Shown: positions 1,830-62,798, counted from the first letter of the stretch. The stretch: 64,000 nt of DNA from Minisyncoccota bacterium (GCA_041667145.1 JBAYFP010000003.1:8424-72423); one strand, 5' to 3'. The notes: generated by a model not told the origin, from the sequence alone. Numbers and translations: made by a program.

Positions 1830-2486
1830 TTAGACATCAATAGAAAAATCTTCTTTTAGAAAAATAGGAAATTGTTCTCTTTGTTCTCTAACTAAAGAAG
1901 CTACTTTTAAACATTCCTCTTTAAAATTTAAATTATCACCATAAAATTCAAGGAGGATAGCTGCTTCTTTTTTAGAAACTATCTTAAAATTCATTCTCTC
2001 ATATTCTTTATCACTAGATACAATCAGACAACTTTTCTCAGGTGGTATATCATGAATCATGTAATTGACATTTACATAAGGAAAAACCTTTAAAAAATAC
2101 TGTTCGTCACTTATCAAATTAGATTTAAATCTACCTTGGAATAGTGCCCCACTGCGATGATGTACTTCATTGAAGTATTTTGTATACCCACCCAACAATC
2201 TTTTTAGAAATTCAGAAATACCTCCATCTATCTCTTGTTTTAGAACAAAATGAAAATGATTTGGGTTAAAACAATAGCAAACAATAGAAACTAAAACGTT
2301 TTGCTCTCCCATACATACGATACCCGATTTATCCCTAATACTCCCTATTGGTTTAATTGTATTAAACTTCTTTACACTTAAAACAAAACGATCTATATCT
2401 TTTTTGGTTGTAAAAATGTCTCTTTTATCAACACCCCTATTAAAAATATGATAATACTGATCAGTTACGAGAGGATTTTTTCTCAT
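1830..2486 (-). CDS. IS200-like Y1 HuH transposase of the REP-associated (RAYT, COG1943-type) kind.
   Basis: 218 aa. Motifs YYHIFNRGVDKRDIF, the HuH motif NPNHFHFVL, and GYTKYFNEVHHRSGALFQGRFKS. These match the YHV-NRG...NHVHLL...Y--Y-N--H-R-GHLWQGRFKS pattern of PF01797/COG1943 proteins. Flanked on both sides by REP1 palindromes. Confidence 0.8.
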   Translation of the reverse strand: MRKNPLVTDQYYHIFNRGVDKRDIFTTKKDIDRFVLSVKKFNTIKPIGSIRDKSGIVCMGEQNVLVSIVCYCFNPNHFHFVLKQEIDGGISEFLKRLLGGYTKYFNEVHHRSGALFQGRFKSNLISDEQYFLKVFPYVNVNYMIHDIPPEKSCLIVSSDKEYERMNFKIVSKKEAAILLEFYGDNLNFKEECLKVASLVREQREQFPIFLKEDFSIDV

Positions 2487-5314: not shown

Positions 5315-7516
5315 TTAAAGAGCATAGTCACTTATTGCAGCTGCAGAAACAGGTGAGATAAAGTCAGTTAGATTAATTGTGTAGAACTTAGCAGCAGTAG
5401 CATCTGCTGGATCCCAGTTAATCGAACCAAGCTTTATTTGGTAGTAACCATCACCATCTGTACCTGTTGTATCAAGACTTAATGTAGCTGTCAAATGGAA
5501 ACGACGAGTAGCTCCTTCTTTAACCATAAAGTCGGTTGTACTATCGTCTGTTGTTGCTCCATCAGCTGTGAGAATAGATGTTGGGCCAACAGCATAGTTA
5601 GCCACTGCTTGATCTACTATAGAACCATTTTTAGCAATATAGTAAACAACACCTTGTCCTGCTCCAGTTGGCAAAGAAGCTATTGTAGTGTCAAATAATG
5701 CACTTTTATCAATATATACATCTTCACCGATAGCGGTAATATCAAAGTTGATAACCCCTGTATAAGAATCAGTCAATGTAGCAGTATCAGGAGATACCTG
5801 TCTTGTGCCAGTTGCAGATACTAAAGTAGCAACCATTCCCTTTGTATAGAATGTTTGGATATTACCAGTTGCAGAACCTGTTCTATCACCAGTAAGTACA
5901 GTATCACCACCTTCTGTTGTCTCAACAAGAACCTTTGTTACATCAGTAAGATCTGCACCCAAGAATGAGAGCTTCAAATTGTCTGCTTGGTCAAAGATAG
6001 CAGCACCTGAAGTTGTTGCAAGTGCTTTCATTGTTGCCTTAACTGTAAAGACTGTAGTCGTATCTTTCTCAAGAGTAAGACCAGAAATATCAGAGAAAAT
6101 AACTGTTCCAGCCGTTTCTTTATTAGCATAATCCCATGACGTTGAGGTTGATGGGTCTGAATCTGCTACGGCAATCGAATCTGTTCCTTTAAAGAGTTCC
6201 CAACTATTTACCATTTCAACCATACCATCAGAATCCCCGGTTGAAGTTGCAGCAAATCGAAGTTTTGTAATATCCATAGCACCACCTGTTGCCTTCAAAC
6301 TAAAGGTAAGCATTGGTACAACTGTTGTACCTGTTTCACTTAATGTGACAACTCCAGTTGTAGGATTACCTGATGCTGTAGCAAGTTTAAGTGCTAGGTC
6401 ACCTGAACTAACAACACTTGAGAAAGCAATTAATTCAGAAACAATAGTTGAATCTGTCAAAATGGCACCTGTCGCATCATTATAACGTACACTAACAGTA
6501 GCTACTGTCCAGTCTAAACCTGCACTATGTTGATCTGTTGAATCAATAGTACTATTAGCTGTTACTTCAACAACTAATGTTATTTTCTGACCAGCTTTTA
6601 CTATTACTCCTGAAAGTGGGATAGAACCACTGTATGTATTATTAGAGGTATCTCTTGTGAAGTTACTTGTAGAAAGTGATCCAACTTTAGTTGAACCCAT
6701 ATATATAGCAACATCACTCATATAACGATCTAATCGGTAAGAACCAGATCCACCATTCGCAGCATGTGTAAATTTAAGCTTTAAAGATGTAAGATTCAAA
6801 TCTGAACCATTATCAGCTTTAACCTCAAATGCGAGAACCTTTGCGGAATCACCTTCATTTACTTCCTCATCATTATAAACTGAAAGTTTTGTTAAAGCAG
6901 AAATATTTCCTGCTCCGCCAGTTACTGTTCCAGTTGTTGAATCACACTTTACGCCAGTTGTTGAACTGTATCCTACAGCTGATGTACAGCCTGCTGGATA
7001 AGTCGTAACTGTTGAACATGATAAACCTGTTGTTGTACTGTATCCTGCTGCTGATGTACAGCCTGCTGGATAATTACCAGTAACAGCACCATTACATGCC
7101 AAACCAGTTACTGAACTGAATCCTACGGTTGATGTACAACCTGGTAAGAAAGCACTAGCTGGAGCACCAGCATTGATTTGAGCGACAGCGGAAGCTCTGG
7201 ACATTGCGCCTAGAACACCGTCAGCTGCTAAACCTCTGGAACCCTGCCAAGCTTTAGCTTGAACTTCAGATAATGGTCCGAATTTTCCATCCTCAACTAA
7301 TTGAGCGGTGGTACTGTAACCATTAAGAAATCTCTGCCAAATTAATGCAGCTTGTCCTGAACTACCTGCGCGAACTGTAGCCGCATACTGAATATCAGCT
7401 GCTGTTACAATCGCTTGCTGAGCATTAGCTTTAGGTACAAGAGCGACAGCTCCTGCAACCAAAACTGCTACTAGCATAACTCCTAAAAGAAATTTTGATT
7501 TTAATAATTTACTCAT
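5315..7516 (-). CDS. Large secreted surface protein with an N-terminal PG_binding_1 domain and P-x-G-C-T-S...G-Y-S-x-T-T-G-x-x-C repeats.
   Basis: 733 aa. Signal peptide MSKLLKSKFLLGVMLVAVLVAGAVALVPKANA. QAALIWQRFLNG...DGKFGPLSEVQAKAWQGSRGLAADGVLG matches PG_binding_1. The Cys motif is repeated four times, then a long beta-rich region follows. Confidence 0.7.
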   Translation of the reverse strand: MSKLLKSKFLLGVMLVAVLVAGAVALVPKANAQQAIVTAADIQYAATVRAGSSGQAALIWQRFLNGYSTTAQLVEDGKFGPLSEVQAKAWQGSRGLAADGVLGAMSRASAVAQINAGAPASAFLPGCTSTVGFSSVTGLACNGAVTGNYPAGCTSAAGYSTTTGLSCSTVTTYPAGCTSAVGYSSTTGVKCDSTTGTVTGGAGNISALTKLSVYNDEEVNEGDSAKVLAFEVKADNGSDLNLTSLKLKFTHAANGGSGSYRLDRYMSDVAIYMGSTKVGSLSTSNFTRDTSNNTYSGSIPLSGVIVKAGQKITLVVEVTANSTIDSTDQHSAGLDWTVATVSVRYNDATGAILTDSTIVSELIAFSSVVSSGDLALKLATASGNPTTGVVTLSETGTTVVPMLTFSLKATGGAMDITKLRFAATSTGDSDGMVEMVNSWELFKGTDSIAVADSDPSTSTSWDYANKETAGTVIFSDISGLTLEKDTTTVFTVKATMKALATTSGAAIFDQADNLKLSFLGADLTDVTKVLVETTEGGDTVLTGDRTGSATGNIQTFYTKGMVATLVSATGTRQVSPDTATLTDSYTGVINFDITAIGEDVYIDKSALFDTTIASLPTGAGQGVVYYIAKNGSIVDQAVANYAVGPTSILTADGATTDDSTTDFMVKEGATRRFHLTATLSLDTTGTDGDGYYQIKLGSINWDPADATAAKFYTINLTDFISPVSAAAISDYAL

Positions 7517-59345: not shown

Positions 59346-59579
59346 ATGGAAACAGAAAAAAAATCAAATGGAGCATTACTTGGATCAATAGTCATCATCG
59401 TCCTCCTTATCATTGGTGGTATATACATCTGGCAATCTAAAGTACAGAAAGCTTTGGAGCAAAAGAAAACGGAAGCTGGAATGGTGACGCCTGAAGACGC
59501 AAATGCATTAGATGCACTTGACCAAGACATAAATGCAACAGATCCTAATGTAGGAGTAGATGCAAGTACTATAAATTAA
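59346..59579 (+). CDS. Small single-TM protein.
   Basis: 77 aa. TM segment GALLGSIVIIVLLIIGGIYIW. Confidence 0.35.
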   Translation: METEKKSNGALLGSIVIIVLLIIGGIYIWQSKVQKALEQKKTEAGMVTPEDANALDALDQDINATDPNVGVDASTIN

Positions 59580-59586
59580 AAATAAT

Positions 59587-59687
59587 AAAAATGTAAAGAA
59601 ACACTTTTTCATGGCTCGCACTCGAACCTGAATATGGTTTACGAATGTAATATTGCGTATGCCAAAAAAAGTGTTTCTTTACATTTT
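59587..59687. repeat. Hairpin element with a perfect 22 bp AT-rich inverted repeat (aaaatgtaaagaaacacttttt / aaaaagtgtttctttacatttt) around a 57 nt GC-richer core.
   Basis: Read directly. Same architecture as the E-family elements. Located downstream of 59346..59579 and upstream of tig. Confidence 0.6.
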
Positions 59688-59768
59688 TTACGGAAGTTAT
59701 TAAAAAGCATCTGCTTCGTGTTTTTTTATTATCTTTGCATTTTTTTTAAAAAAATATAGTATATTTAT

Positions 59769-60857
59769 ATGTCTAAAATAAACGTAAAAAAATTACCAAA
59801 AAGTGAAGTAGAAATCGAAGGAGAGATAGAAGCTGATGTTTTTGAGGCCTATTTCAGTAAGGCTGTAAAAAAAATAGGAGAAAACTTGGAAATGGATGGT
59901 TTCCGAAAAGGAAAAGTCCCTGAAAATATTTTACTTTCTAAGATACCCGAAGCACAAATATTAGGAGAAATGGCAGAGCTTGCACTCAGTGAACATTACC
60001 CACAAATTTTAAAAGATGAAAAGATTGATGCCATCAGCCAACCAGAAATTTCTATCACCAAACTCGCTCGTAAAAATCCTCTAGGATTTAAAATAAAAAC
60101 AGCAACGATGCCTGAGATGGATCTTCCTGATTATAAACAAATCGCTAAAAAAGTTGTTTCAGAAATAAAAGACGAAGAAAAAAACGTAGAACCCACCGAG
60201 AAAGAAGTAGAAGACACTATCATGGACATCAGAAAATCACGTGCTCCTAAAATACATATGGCAAATGAAGCTGAACACATACACAAGGAAGGTGAAAAAC
60301 ATGAGCACGAAGAAAAAAAAGAGATAAAAGAAGAAGAACTACCACCATTTAATGATGAATTCGTACAAGCATTAGGACCCTTCAAAAATATAGAGGATTT
60401 TAAAGAAAAATTAAAACAAAATATAAAATTAGAAAAAGAAAATCAGTTAAAAGAAAAAACCCGACTAAAAATCGTAGAAAAAATAATCGACGACTTGAAA
60501 GTTGAAATGCCAGAAATCCTAATAGAAGTAGAATTAAACAAAATTTTATATAGAATGGAATCTGACATCACTCAAATGGGTCTAAAATTCGAGGACTATT
60601 TGAAACATTTAAGCAAGACAGTTGAGGATTTGAGAAAAGAATTCAGAGTCGATGCAGAAAAGAAAGCAAAACTTGGTTTAATCTTAAATAAAATAGCTGA
60701 ATTAGAAAAAATTACTGCCGACCCTGAACAAGTAGCCAATGAAGTAGCAAAAATACTCGAACATTACAAAGATACTGATGCTGAACGCGCCACAATACAC
60801 GCTGAAAATGTTTTAACTAATGAAAAGGTGTTTCAGTTTTTGGAAGAACAGAAATAG
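59769..60857 (+). CDS. tig: Trigger factor (short form).
   Basis: 362 aa. N-terminal ribosome-binding signature DGFRKGKVP. Conserved tig-clpP neighbourhood. Confidence 0.85.
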   Translation: MSKINVKKLPKSEVEIEGEIEADVFEAYFSKAVKKIGENLEMDGFRKGKVPENILLSKIPEAQILGEMAELALSEHYPQILKDEKIDAISQPEISITKLARKNPLGFKIKTATMPEMDLPDYKQIAKKVVSEIKDEEKNVEPTEKEVEDTIMDIRKSRAPKIHMANEAEHIHKEGEKHEHEEKKEIKEEELPPFNDEFVQALGPFKNIEDFKEKLKQNIKLEKENQLKEKTRLKIVEKIIDDLKVEMPEILIEVELNKILYRMESDITQMGLKFEDYLKHLSKTVEDLRKEFRVDAEKKAKLGLILNKIAELEKITADPEQVANEVAKILEHYKDTDAERATIHAENVLTNEKVFQFLEEQK

Positions 60858-60862
60858 AATTT

Positions 60863-61126
60863 CTATTCTCCTTTTAATCCTTTACTAAAGGTATCAGGTT
60901 GCTTCCAGCCTCTATGACTAAAATCAAATATTTTATCGACTTCTTCCTTCGACAAACCTTTCTCTTTTGCTATTCTTATGATATCAGAACAAGTACTAAC
61001 ATGTGGTGCTTCTTTAGAATCAAAAAGAAGATCAAAAATCTTTTTAAATTCTTTAATAGTTTCCTCTCTCTCCTCAGACATGATCTTATTAGGTATGTTT
61101 TCCATAGTAATATATCTTAACGCCAT
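60863..61126 (-). CDS. Hypothetical small protein.
   Basis: 87 aa ORF between tig and the RAYT unit. No motifs. Confidence 0.3.
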   Translation of the reverse strand: MALRYITMENIPNKIMSEEREETIKEFKKIFDLLFDSKEAPHVSTCSDIIRIAKEKGLSKEEVDKIFDFSHRGWKQPDTFSKGLKGE

Positions 61127-61210
61127 TAGCGAAATTATTTTATAATACCTTAATACTACCCCCCCCCGACATATTTTGTCAAATATTTGTATTAATCCAG
61201 CCCACTACTT

Positions 61211-61914
61211 AAACACTTGGACATCGGATGTCCAAGTGTTTAATTTTCTAATTCTTTTAACATTTCTTTTCTTAATTCCATATCTTCCAACGATGAAGAG
61301 ACAAAGTCCTCGTACTCTTTTTTATTTCTAAACTGTTCTAGCACAATATTTGTATTACAAAATTTATTATTTAACGTTTCATCTAAAAATTCATTCAAAC
61401 TTGATTTACTCAACTTAGACATCGGATGTCCAAGTTTGTTATTTCCATTAATATAAGCGCTAAGGTGAAGCAAATATTCATTTGAATCAATATGTTTTGA
61501 TTTAAATTTACCTTGGAAAAGAACACCGCTACGTTTATGCCTATTATTAAAATATTTTGTATACCCATTCCCCAACCTCTGCATAAATTTCTCAACCCCT
61601 TTCTCTTGAAGAGGAGTAATTAAAAAATGAAAGTGATTAGGGTTCATACAATAAGCAATAAATTGTACAAGCGGTTTCTTTTTTTTATTAGCTTCGCCAA
61701 ACTTTTTCTTAAAAGAAAATTCATAAACACTACCGATTGGCTCTGTTTGATTAAAATCAAATATACTTTCACAAAAACGAAATAAATCCTTTTCATCAAC
61801 AAAAATATTCCTCTTATCTGTTCCACGATTATAAATATGATAATACTCATTAATTGCAAAAGAATGTTTTCTCATACTCAAACTATATCACTTGGACATC
61901 GGATGTCCAAGTGG
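61211..61914 (-). mobile_element. REP-RAYT-REP unit B, inserted between tig and clpP. Its cognate palindrome family REP2 (ttggacatcggatgtccaa) is distinct from REP1.
   Basis: Palindromes at 61211..61241 (overlapping the stop codon), 61412..61436 (inside the coding sequence) and 61889..61914 (8 nt upstream of the start and 37 nt upstream of clpP). Confidence 0.7.
61240..61881 (-). CDS. IS200-like Y1 HuH transposase of the RAYT type, paralog of 1830..2486.
   Basis: 213 aa. [15 protein letters not shown], the HuH motif NPNHFHFLI, and [23 protein letters not shown]. About 40% identical to RAYT A across the conserved blocks. Confidence 0.8.
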
Positions 61915-61950
61915 CTTGATTCACTCATAAAACAGGTATATTATAGACAC

Positions 61951-62550
61951 ATGTTAATACCAACAGTAATAGAAAAATCACAATTTGGAGAAAGAGCTTA
62001 TGATATATACTCCCGTCTTTTAAGAGAGAGAATAGTTTTCTTGGCTGGCCCTATCGATGACAACGTCGCAAATATCGTCATTGCACAGCTTTTATTTTTA
62101 GAATCAGAAGATTCAAAAAAAGATATCTCACTCTATATCAACTCCCCTGGCGGATCTGTGACTTCAACTTTAGCAATAGTAGACACCATGAACCATGTTC
62201 GCCCAGATATTTCTACTTTTTGTGTGGGAATAGCGGCATCCGGTGCAGCTATTATACTTTCTGCAGGTAAAAAAGGTAAAAGATTTATTTTGCCAAATGC
62301 AGAAATAATGATTCATCAGCCACTCGGTGGTGTAGAGGGACAAGCTACAGATATCGCTATCACTGCTAAACACATTTTGAAAACGAGAGACAATTTAAAT
62401 AAAATTTTAGCCAAAAATACAGGCAAACCTCTAACTCAAATAGAAAAAGATGTGGAAAGAGATTTCTTCATGGATGCAGAAGAGGCCAAGAAATATGGCA
62501 TTATCGATGAAATAGTCACCAAATCAAAAGCCCCTACTCCAAAATCATAA
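61951..62550 (+). CDS. clpP: ATP-dependent Clp protease proteolytic subunit.
   Basis: [29 protein letters not shown] plus catalytic Ser (GIAASGAA), His and Asp context. The start is taken at the ATG at 61951, because the upstream extension in the ORF track covers a REP2 palindrome. Confidence 0.9.
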
Positions 62551-62798
62551 GTTTCTCAAAAAACACAAAAACTGACTAATTATCAACATATAGACAAAAT
62601 ATGTTTAATTTGTTATATTACATATGTTGAATTTTACAAATTTATTTTCACTTAGTTTATAAGAATATCCTATATATGTTGTTGAGAGATAAAATTTTAG
62701 AGAAAAATTCCCCATGTTTTAAAGGAATCAATCATATCTTTTGCCTAAGAGCAAAACTGCAGATATAGTGGCTTGTTTTTATAAGCTGAAATAAGCTT

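Follow-up and report, generated by a model that had tools for sequence, protein, structure and literature searches.

The present analysis asks what kind of element separates tig from clpP in a stretch of 64,000 nucleotides (nt) from a Minisyncoccota bacterium (GCA_041667145.1 JBAYFP010000003.1:8424-72423), hereafter the window, with positions counted from its first letter, and how the palindromes around and inside that element are to be explained. The element consists of a gene for a Y1 (HUH / single-tyrosine) transposase-like protein, here called RAYT-B, with three copies of one palindrome. Patterns detected in the window and in related loci are probably best explained by a lineage of HUH/Y1 single-strand DNA transposases that is specific to the Candidate Phyla Radiation (CPR) and resembles the E. 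coli REPtron, in which the tips of palindromic hairpins are replaced in concert and of which one unit landed in the tig-clpP spacer. This unit would work like the canonical families of REP-associated tyrosine transposases (RAYT) and their repetitive extragenic palindromes (REP), but it stands outside them.

The 19-mer TTGGACATCGGATGTCCAA that forms the center of the palindrome occurs in three copies within 700 nt of the window, two exact and one with 1 mismatch, at the places given in a first-pass annotation of this DNA. There was no fourth site anywhere in the 64 kb when up to 3 mismatches were allowed, and the number of such matches expected by chance from shuffled sequence is 0.01. The exact cores lie at 61217-61235, downstream of the gene, and at 61892-61910, upstream of it, with the internal core at 61415-61433 carrying the mismatch. 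The downstream palindrome, TTAAACACTTGGACATCGGATGTCCAAGTGTTTAA (61209-61243, like the other two not assigned to a strand), is perfect with arms of 17+1+17 and overlaps the stop codon of the transposase gene, which falls at 61240-61242 on the minus strand. The upstream palindrome, CACTTGGACATCGGATGTCCAAGTG (61889-61913, 12+1+12), ends 13 nt from the transposase ATG (61875) on one side and 37 nt from the clpP ATG (61951) on the other, the latter distance agreeing with the one reported earlier. The internal palindrome, AACTTAGACATCGGATGTCCAAGTT (61412-61436), is in frame and codes for LGHPMSKL, aa 148-155, including the GHPMSKL peptide that had already been read within the coding sequence, and its single A.C mismatch is synonymous (TCC>TCT). 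Folded as single-stranded DNA, the downstream, upstream, and internal copies reached -15.5 kcal/mol (z = -10.4), -11.0 kcal/mol (z = -7.1), and -5.0 kcal/mol (z = -2.7), respectively. Just past the downstream palindrome the plus strand reads TTTTCTAATT, which is terminator-like.

The gene itself (61240..61875, minus strand) encodes 211 aa plus the stop codon and matches Pfam PF01797 (Y1_Tnp) with 36.1 bits, where the cutoff is 23 (E 7.9e-9). It had been described as a second RAYT paralog of 213 aa. The Y1 assignment stands, but the shorter length is likelier and the protein fails the curated model for canonical RAYT proteins. The start is most likely the ATG at 61875 (MRK...) and not the TTG at 61881, because the public record has the 211-aa form and the resulting N-terminus agrees with all homologs. 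When 22 homologs, 38-85% identical, were aligned, the HUH residues N80-H81-F-H83 and the tyrosine Y141 were invariant. The AlphaFold model (predicted local distance difference test score, pLDDT, 82.9; predicted template modelling score, pTM, 0.81) was compared with the PDB by Foldseek, and the best match was 4ER8_A, E. coli TnpA_REP with a bound REP hairpin (E 6.6e-5, prob 1.0), with 2A6M and 2XO6 next and the IS608 and ISDra2 transposases ranking after TnpA_REP. A search of the PDB with the RAYT-B sequence profile matched no entry, the link to TnpA_REP being drawn from the fold search alone. The family is large, with 2,440 hits, and is, by the organism names given, restricted to Patescibacteria, all names being those of Patescibacteria groups or of an unclassified "bacterium". 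The window also holds a paralogous Y1 gene, unit A (1833-2486, minus strand), 38% identical to RAYT-B, with a distinct palindrome of its own, CAGACGTTGGACGTCTG, found as REPIN-like inverted doublets at 1747-1797 and 2617-2667 (free energy, dG, of the doublet as DNA -25.4) and as a single copy at 2503-2519, 16 nt 5' of the ATG; there was no copy inside the unit A gene and none elsewhere in the window. A variant hairpin of unit A occupies 2686-2716, after a 762-aa gene. The earlier suggestion that RAYT-B is flanked by its own palindrome type, other than that of this paralog, is thus upheld in the window.

The arrangement of the copies is a property of the family. Loci were assembled from 80 homolog loci from metagenomes, several on long contigs, and the 19-mer loci of species-representative genomes, and the palindrome scan covered 93 distinct homologous genes. 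The dominant palindrome was present on at least one side in 85 of the 93, and the same core was found on both sides in 51; the median gap was 16 nt from the end of the upstream palindrome to the ATG and 3 nt from the stop to the start of the downstream copy. At least one perfect internal palindrome occurred in 64 genes, and in 63 of these the internal and flanking copies had a 15-nt core in common, with 57 distinct cores among the 93 genes. Internal copies fell in two slots, aa 54-70 and aa 146-164, and 80 of 82 were in one codon phase, encoding peptides of the form (Q/K/R)LGxxx(S/T/A)K(L/S). The idea that they are independent recent insertions was rejected on this ground, and the internal palindrome of the window, correctly noticed as a third copy, is not incidental, since it is a phase-conserved trait across the family. 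It occupies slot 2, where the palindrome is perfect in the orthologs L121, L124, L125, and L128. In a pairwise comparison of five orthologs with 70-82% amino-acid identity, the eight slot-2 codons had the lowest nucleotide divergence in the gene, 0.05 versus a gene mean of 0.246, with 0.16-0.20 at the HUH motif. All synonymous sites of slot 2 were fixed among these five except the central base, which flips between C and G (CCG/CGG) and with it the residue between Pro and Arg, the 120 best homologs including 32 with GHPMS and 27 with GHRMS. Fixed synonymous sites, together with a flip that changes the amino acid, indicate that constraint acts on the DNA. Slot 1, occupied in 39 homolog genes, corresponds in the window to aa 57-66 (61678..61707, minus strand). 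Many homologs have a second in-frame palindrome there, whereas in the window the slot looks decayed and may be the relic of a former internal copy; close orthologs diverge more in this stretch than in any other (0.40). The AlphaFold model shows slot 1 as a coil of low confidence, with slot 2 just after the helix of the tyrosine.

The palindromes share an outline of conserved outer feet, (A)CTTGG...CCAAG(T), around a variable tip of 11-13 nt. A TTGG foot was present in 193 of 213 copies, with 4-5 variable base pairs inside it and a loop of 1, 3, or 5 nt. Within one locus all copies carry one core, and comparison of closely related loci revealed where cores part. Loci L008 and L164, with proteins 83% identical and long stretches of identical DNA, differ in exactly 11 nt between CTTGG and CCAAG (CGCTTCGGGCG vs AAGCTCAGCTT) with identical flanks, and this change is present at three sites, the upstream copy, slot 1, and slot 2. 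Between L139 and L140 the 5-nt loop alone was swapped, in concert and including copies in opposite orientation, and L161 and L178 differed in one compensated stem pair in every copy; another hairpin tip is exemplified by GGAGGCGAAGCCTCC. Given that tips differ and flanks are identical in such close pairs, some process rewrites the tip in every copy that a locus carries, with the feet as its limits. The core type tracks the transposase phylogeny only loosely. Of the 24 gene pairs that were at least 70% identical, 11 had a core in common, and the GGACATC core was found with proteins only 33-36% identical to each other, whereas genes 83% identical carried different cores. Simple co-evolution of enzyme and palindrome, which the first-pass annotation had proposed in the form of co-evolving transposase and REP pairs, was rejected as too simple on this ground. 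The likeliest agent of the tip swaps would be the transposase itself, cutting at both feet, to which we would give somewhat less than an even chance.

An alternative explanation could be replication template switching between quasi-palindromes, or other host recombination, that homogenises the copies without the transposase, the feet serving as microhomology and the internal copies being tolerated in permissive loops. Consistent with this, identical sequence of 5-10 nt bordered the swaps on either side, orientation followed no rule (28 upstream copies inverted relative to the downstream copy and 22 in the same sense), the Pro/Arg flip was nearly 1:1, and the core was uncoupled from the protein phylogeny, but template switching would not account for the same four positions being used in nearly every gene of the family, for the single core per locus, or for entry into many unrelated open reading frames (ORFs). 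We consider it unlikely, albeit the most credible of the alternatives to a REPtron-like lineage.

The palindrome was also found dispersed in other genomes. An exact 19-mer scan of one genome per species detected it in at least 119 stretches, in metagenome-assembled genomes (MAGs) labelled as many different CPR groups, the non-CPR labels among the matches listed being one Bdellovibrionales record and some with merely "bacterium". About 100 of the at least 119 listed stretches had no Y1 homolog in their 8 kb. The copies numbered at least 10 in JACOYO01, spread over 4 contigs, and at least 5 in LBYO01, and in DAIEQH01, the closest relative genome by Tig identity (84%), the 19-mer was positioned before a cut-off RAYT-B-like gene on one contig and as a doublet inside ligA on another. 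Around homolog genes there were 5 extra exact copies in 359 kb, or approximately 1 per 70 kb. Among the matches listed, 37 of 89 solo copies with enough flank (42%) lay deep inside long ORFs, compared with 69% of random positions. Intragenic solo copies used all three frames, and the 19-mer has no stop codon in any of them. Five carriers were scanned and were bona fide UvrA, LigA, RecG, GltX, and GatB, and inspection by eye of the same set added one more each of uvrA, ligA, and gltX, along with two ORFs that are ComEC-like. The GltX orthologs of L013 and L022 carried the 19-mer at the same protein site, as a single copy in one and a doublet in the other read in different frames; the LigA orthologs of L016 and L092 had a common doublet at one site, and UvrA of L027 and L032 had the 19-mer at different sites. 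Again among the matches listed, 54 of 107 solo copies had at least 3 extra base pairs in their flanks, where 1.6% would be expected, these flanks being variable and complementary, and 31 of 107 had a second copy no more than 100 nt away. No exact copy of the 19-mer was present in IMG/VR viral contigs, and there was no sign of a phage vehicle. At L205 a nested palindrome, ACTTAGAAAC[GGGGTTTCGAAACCCC]GTTTCTAAGT, with one palindrome in the loop of another, was seen on both sides of the Y1 gene, suggesting insertion into hairpin loops. At L121 and L124 (~5960-6000) the upstream palindrome ends 15 nt before the ATG of the RAYT-B ortholog and the release factor 1 (RF-1) gene only 7 nt before it, so the palindrome lies within the RF-1 coding sequence, at its 3' end.

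These observations bear on a second alternative, that the unit is an ordinary autonomous insertion sequence of the IS200/IS605 type (IS608, ISDra2 TnpA), with the outer palindromes as its end hairpins, moving as a whole, and with the solo palindromes as footprints or unrelated sequences. There are real similarities, in that RAYT-B has the HUH/Y1 fold, with resemblance to the IS608 and ISDra2 TnpA proteins, and hairpins beside the gene; orthologs occur at different loci, and Y1 units recur in the tig-clpP spacer. The single-strand "peel and paste" chemistry of IS200/IS605 elements may, by analogy, be a model for how the RAYT-B unit works. However, the ends of the unit are identical and perfectly palindromic as opposed to distinct, imperfect left and right ends, and the protein is longer, at 211 aa, with Y---N in place of the Y---Q motif listed for subclass 1.1 in Table 1 of PMC6006769. 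No tnpB gene was found near RAYT-B or near its orthologs on the fetched long contigs. Moreover, the element is low-copy, with one B-type gene in the window beside the distant paralog of just 38% identity, and it has solo hairpins, most of those listed lacking a nearby Y1 gene as described above and some lying in frame in housekeeping genes. An ordinary insertion sequence is therefore improbable. Least likely is a function of the palindrome for the host, for example as a terminator, as a binding site for a regulator, or as a signal for DNA uptake, with only a secondary link to Y1 genes, since the overlap of the upstream copy with a promoter-like site, the terminator-like downstream copy on the plus strand, the same 19-mer across MAGs labelled as many CPR groups, and the ComEC-like ORFs among the loci are offset by 57 locus-specific cores that each fit the flanks and internal slots of their own Y1 gene, by solo copies lying within long ORFs (the 42% among the matches listed) at varied positions and in all three frames, and by the low density of about one copy per 70 kb.

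The position of the unit between tig and clpP appears to be derived. The trigger factor gene tig (59769..60857, plus strand; Pfam Trigger_N and Trigger_C) is the left neighbour and clpP (61951..62550, plus strand; Pfam CLP_protease, E 2e-82) the right, within a backbone common with relatives of H+-PPase, two small ORFs, tig, clpP, and RNase Y. The spacer between tig and clpP measured 54 nt in L125, 76 nt in L211, and 189 nt in L212, which bears out the proposal that the RAYT-B unit breaks an adjacency of these two genes. In L213 the spacer contained a 163-aa ORF, and in L208, L210, and the P0142 contig, with Tig 80-84% identical to that of the window, it contained a Y1_Tnp gene and a CmpB-like gene, with small ORFs in L208 and L210. 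The Y1 gene of P0142 is identified by its Pfam hit and gene order alone, and that of L208 and L210 is a different paralog of the YIHLNP type, on the forward strand, 40-45% identical to RAYT-B and with its own palindrome, TTCCCGAGGATAACCCTCGGGAA. At these two loci of closest relatives (L208 1893-2601; L210 5305-6014) a paralog palindrome of the form TTCCCGAGG(A/G)TAACCCTCGGGAA was seen with one copy upstream and the other in the 3' coding sequence, where the L210 copy encodes FPEDNPRE. A reversed RAYT-B unit, as in the window, was shared with L128, whose RAYT is 82% identical to that of the window and whose Tig is just 45% identical. Other RAYT-B orthologs were positioned between prfA and ftsE (L121, L124) or beside nusA (L125). 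Varied spacer content, together with orthologs elsewhere, suggests that the arrangement in the window is derived and that the spacer is a recurrent site of landing or exchange. A fixed ancestral gene order with no copies elsewhere was accordingly not what was seen, as orthologs reside at other loci and the palindrome is dispersed in other genomes. The sequence CCAAGACTTG in the empty L125 spacer was considered as an excision footprint or target and was dropped, as it was not conserved in L211 or L212.

There is a further ORF of 87 aa in the spacer (60863..61126, minus strand), annotated publicly as an 80-aa hypothetical protein. It had no Pfam or NCBIfam match, matched itself alone among 5.8 billion protein clusters, and had no similarity to any fetched locus. 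It is an orphan and probably not part of the element. The unit and this ORF had been described as jointly interrupting tig and clpP, and both do lie in the spacer, but the ORF is absent at L128. A run of eight C (accccccccga) was noted at 61160-61170, between this ORF and the downstream palindrome. On the other side of tig, between it and a 77-aa ORF, a long hairpin at 59587-59688 has a stem of 23 bp that encloses further structure (RNA dG -38.4, z -6.9); it is not a tRNA and matched no Rfam family, and a scan of 59500-62700 against Rfam found no relevant family.

Most likely clpP keeps its own, apparently leaderless, promoter-like site in the presence of the unit. This site, TTGATT-17-TATTAT (61916..61944, plus strand), has 9 of 12 consensus matches and ends 6 nt before the ATG, with its -35 beginning 2 nt past the end of the palindrome. 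The same -35/-10 geometry was found in L125 (TTGAAA-17-TATACT-6-ATG) and L211, and in 5 of 6 genomes examined exactly 6 nt separated a -10-like hexamer from the ATG of clpP, L212 and L213 keeping the hexamer and L128 fitting poorly. No Shine-Dalgarno sequence was evident at clpP in the window (61939-61953) or in relatives; leaderless mRNAs are suggested in this lineage. As the promoter-like site of clpP adjoins the palindrome, transcription would start next to the element and not within it, so that of the two starting points previously envisaged for clpP transcription, within or next to the element, the second is retained on the strength of the predicted site 2 nt away and the first is given up. 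The transposase gene has a promoter-like site as well (61882..61909, minus strand), with a -35 of TGGACA, a spacer of 16 nt, TG-TATAGT, and 6 nt to the ATG, giving 10 of 12 matches and a leaderless geometry, and its -35 lies within the upstream palindrome. A position matrix of 59 homolog loci had TATAAT at -12..-7 and the TTGG foot at -36..-33. The foot at the -35 position in these loci places the upstream palindrome inside the promoter-like region of the transposase gene, and this location suggests that the gene could be autoregulated by binding or by hairpin extrusion.

Comparison with described systems clarifies what is familiar in this family and what is not. REP-flanked RAYT genes, in-frame REPs in TnpA_Y1 subclass 2.4, and "double-foot" REPs are already known (PMC6006769). 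The closest parallel is the E. coli REPtron (TnpA_REP, PDB 4ER8), likewise a Y1/HUH gene flanked by a palindrome that is also dispersed in genomes; its enzyme is the best structural match of the RAYT-B model, and the window paralog with its own palindrome set adds to the likeness. The differences are a sequence identity of 11% with RAYT-B, a curated RAYT model that is not reached, palindromes that are perfect with a loop of 1-5 nt and no GTAG tag, a density of about 1 per 70 kb with many copies intragenic, and hosts that are CPR and not Proteobacteria. Subclass 2.4 (Bertels group 4) has been reported to contain in-frame REPs within tnpA_REP genes, generally between HuH and Y, and to have the motifs NH[IFV]H / WQ / YIxNNP (PMC6006769, Quentin, Siguier, Chandler & Fichant 2018). 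It shares with RAYT-B a cognate REP in the transposase gene with the frame intact, symmetrical "double-foot" REPs, and NH[IFV]H, which the NHFH of RAYT-B fits, but RAYT-B has FQ and YINGNN instead of WQ and YIxNNP, has two fixed slots in one codon phase, of which the first (aa 54-70) precedes the HuH strand and the second (aa 146-164) follows the tyrosine helix, and has palindromes without the GT[AG]G/C[TC]AC foot. By motif only, as set out in Table 1 of PMC6006769, subclass 2.1 (TIRYT) comes nearest to RAYT-B with NH[YF]H and FQ; its length of about 210-250 aa is also similar, and the L208/L210 paralog has YIHLNP. Subclass 2.1 was reported without REPs and with a C-terminal helix-turn-helix domain (PMC6006769; Di Nocera 2013, PMC3733652), whereas the CPR genes are flanked by cognate palindromes on both sides and also contain them. 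Finally, REPs in frame in genes for uvrA, DNA ligase, and tRNA synthetases, and REPs within "target palindromes", were described in other phyla by Di Nocera et al. 2013 (PMC3733652), and together with the Rickettsia palindromic elements (RPE; Ogata 2000; PMC3733652) these resemble the CPR copies as in-frame palindromes in functional genes of the same classes, the complementary flanks of CPR solo copies resembling the target palindromes. Those intragenic REPs carry GTAG or CGTC tags, the CGTC repeats are without a linked transposase, and RPE-1 is longer (PMC3733652), in contrast to an untagged palindrome of 19-25 nt linked to a Y1 gene. In the literature searched we found no description of a REP/RAYT system in Patescibacteria/CPR, although one may exist elsewhere, and no earlier description of two phase-fixed internal slots outside the HuH-Y interval, of untagged perfect palindromes with conserved TTGG/CCAA feet, of a foot used as a -35 element, or of cassette-like concerted tip swaps; the parts of PMC6006769 used here make no mention of concerted tip swapping.

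Several observations weigh against the interpretation of the unit as a REPtron-like lineage with concerted tip replacement. RAYT-B scored 26.7 bits on the curated RAYT equivalog model NF047646, whose cutoff is 80, and did not reach it. Its tyrosine motif is YINGNN and not the class-2 Y---NP, the P position being N or D within the B clade of the alignment. To our knowledge, the cutting done by characterised Y1 enzymes is unlike a cut at the feet, which would fall within a base-paired stem. The uncoupling of core and protein phylogeny argues against recognition specific to the tip, and the enzyme may or may not be the cause of the swaps. The 64 kb contained no solo copy, where about 1 would be expected at the density of homolog neighbourhoods, so that activity of the unit in this genome is putative; that low density makes the absence from the remaining 63 kb uninformative. 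The foot reads (A/C)ACTTGG...CCAAGT(G/T), with neither GTAG nor GTGG, and canonical REPs are defined by a GT[AG]G tag at the foot of the hairpin (PMC6006769).

With these reservations, the REPtron-like lineage would operate as follows. The 211-aa enzyme would bind the hairpin formed by its cognate palindrome in single-stranded DNA and, by analogy with TnpA_REP and IS608 TnpA, would cut and rejoin DNA beside that hairpin. The palindrome is found at four kinds of position: upstream, where its foot may double as the -35 of a predicted leaderless promoter; at the stop codon, which it overlaps or closely follows; in ancient in-frame slots, one or two per gene, which in the predicted structure are peripheral loops before the HUH strand and after the tyrosine helix; and in sparse solo copies elsewhere in the genome, many of them in frame in housekeeping genes. 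A concerted process replaces exactly the tip between the feet, keeping the copies of a locus identical, and the unit in the window landed in the tig-clpP spacer directly upstream of the promoter-like site of clpP. Of all this, the anatomy of the unit, its conservation across the family, the co-variation of the copies, the sharp limits of the swaps, the dispersal, and the varied synteny are observed, and the activity of the enzyme, the use of the promoters, and the agent of the swaps are inferred. A bolder version, which we regard as rather doubtful, is that the true mobile or convertible unit is the 11-13-nt tip, the Y1 enzyme cutting at both feet and swapping tips among all foot-bearing sites. 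If this were true, these sites would include two loops of the enzyme's own coding sequence, and whenever the repeat family changed, two peptides on the surface of the enzyme would be rewritten with it; were those peptides to touch the hairpin, a single piece of DNA would physically couple the specificity of substrate and of enzyme.

At the locus itself, the regulation of clpP in the window is probably unchanged in kind, with its own promoter-like site kept and a strong hairpin 2 nt upstream, and the comparative pattern holds more interest than could be foreseen from this locus alone. The means by which RAYT-type enzymes move or maintain REPs are still not understood, and in the literature searched the E. 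coli enzyme was cited for cleavage in vitro and for nothing further. With its dozens of locus-specific palindromes, the RAYT-B family amounts to a natural experiment, in which the sharp swap boundaries at TTGG/CCAA and the phase-fixed copies in the transposase's own gene point to possible sites of cutting and joining. CPR bacteria, with very small genomes, tolerate this palindromic repeat in frame in the essential genes uvrA, ligA, recG, gltX, and gatB, and in-frame palindromes of this kind may account for some of the unexplained insertions in CPR proteins.

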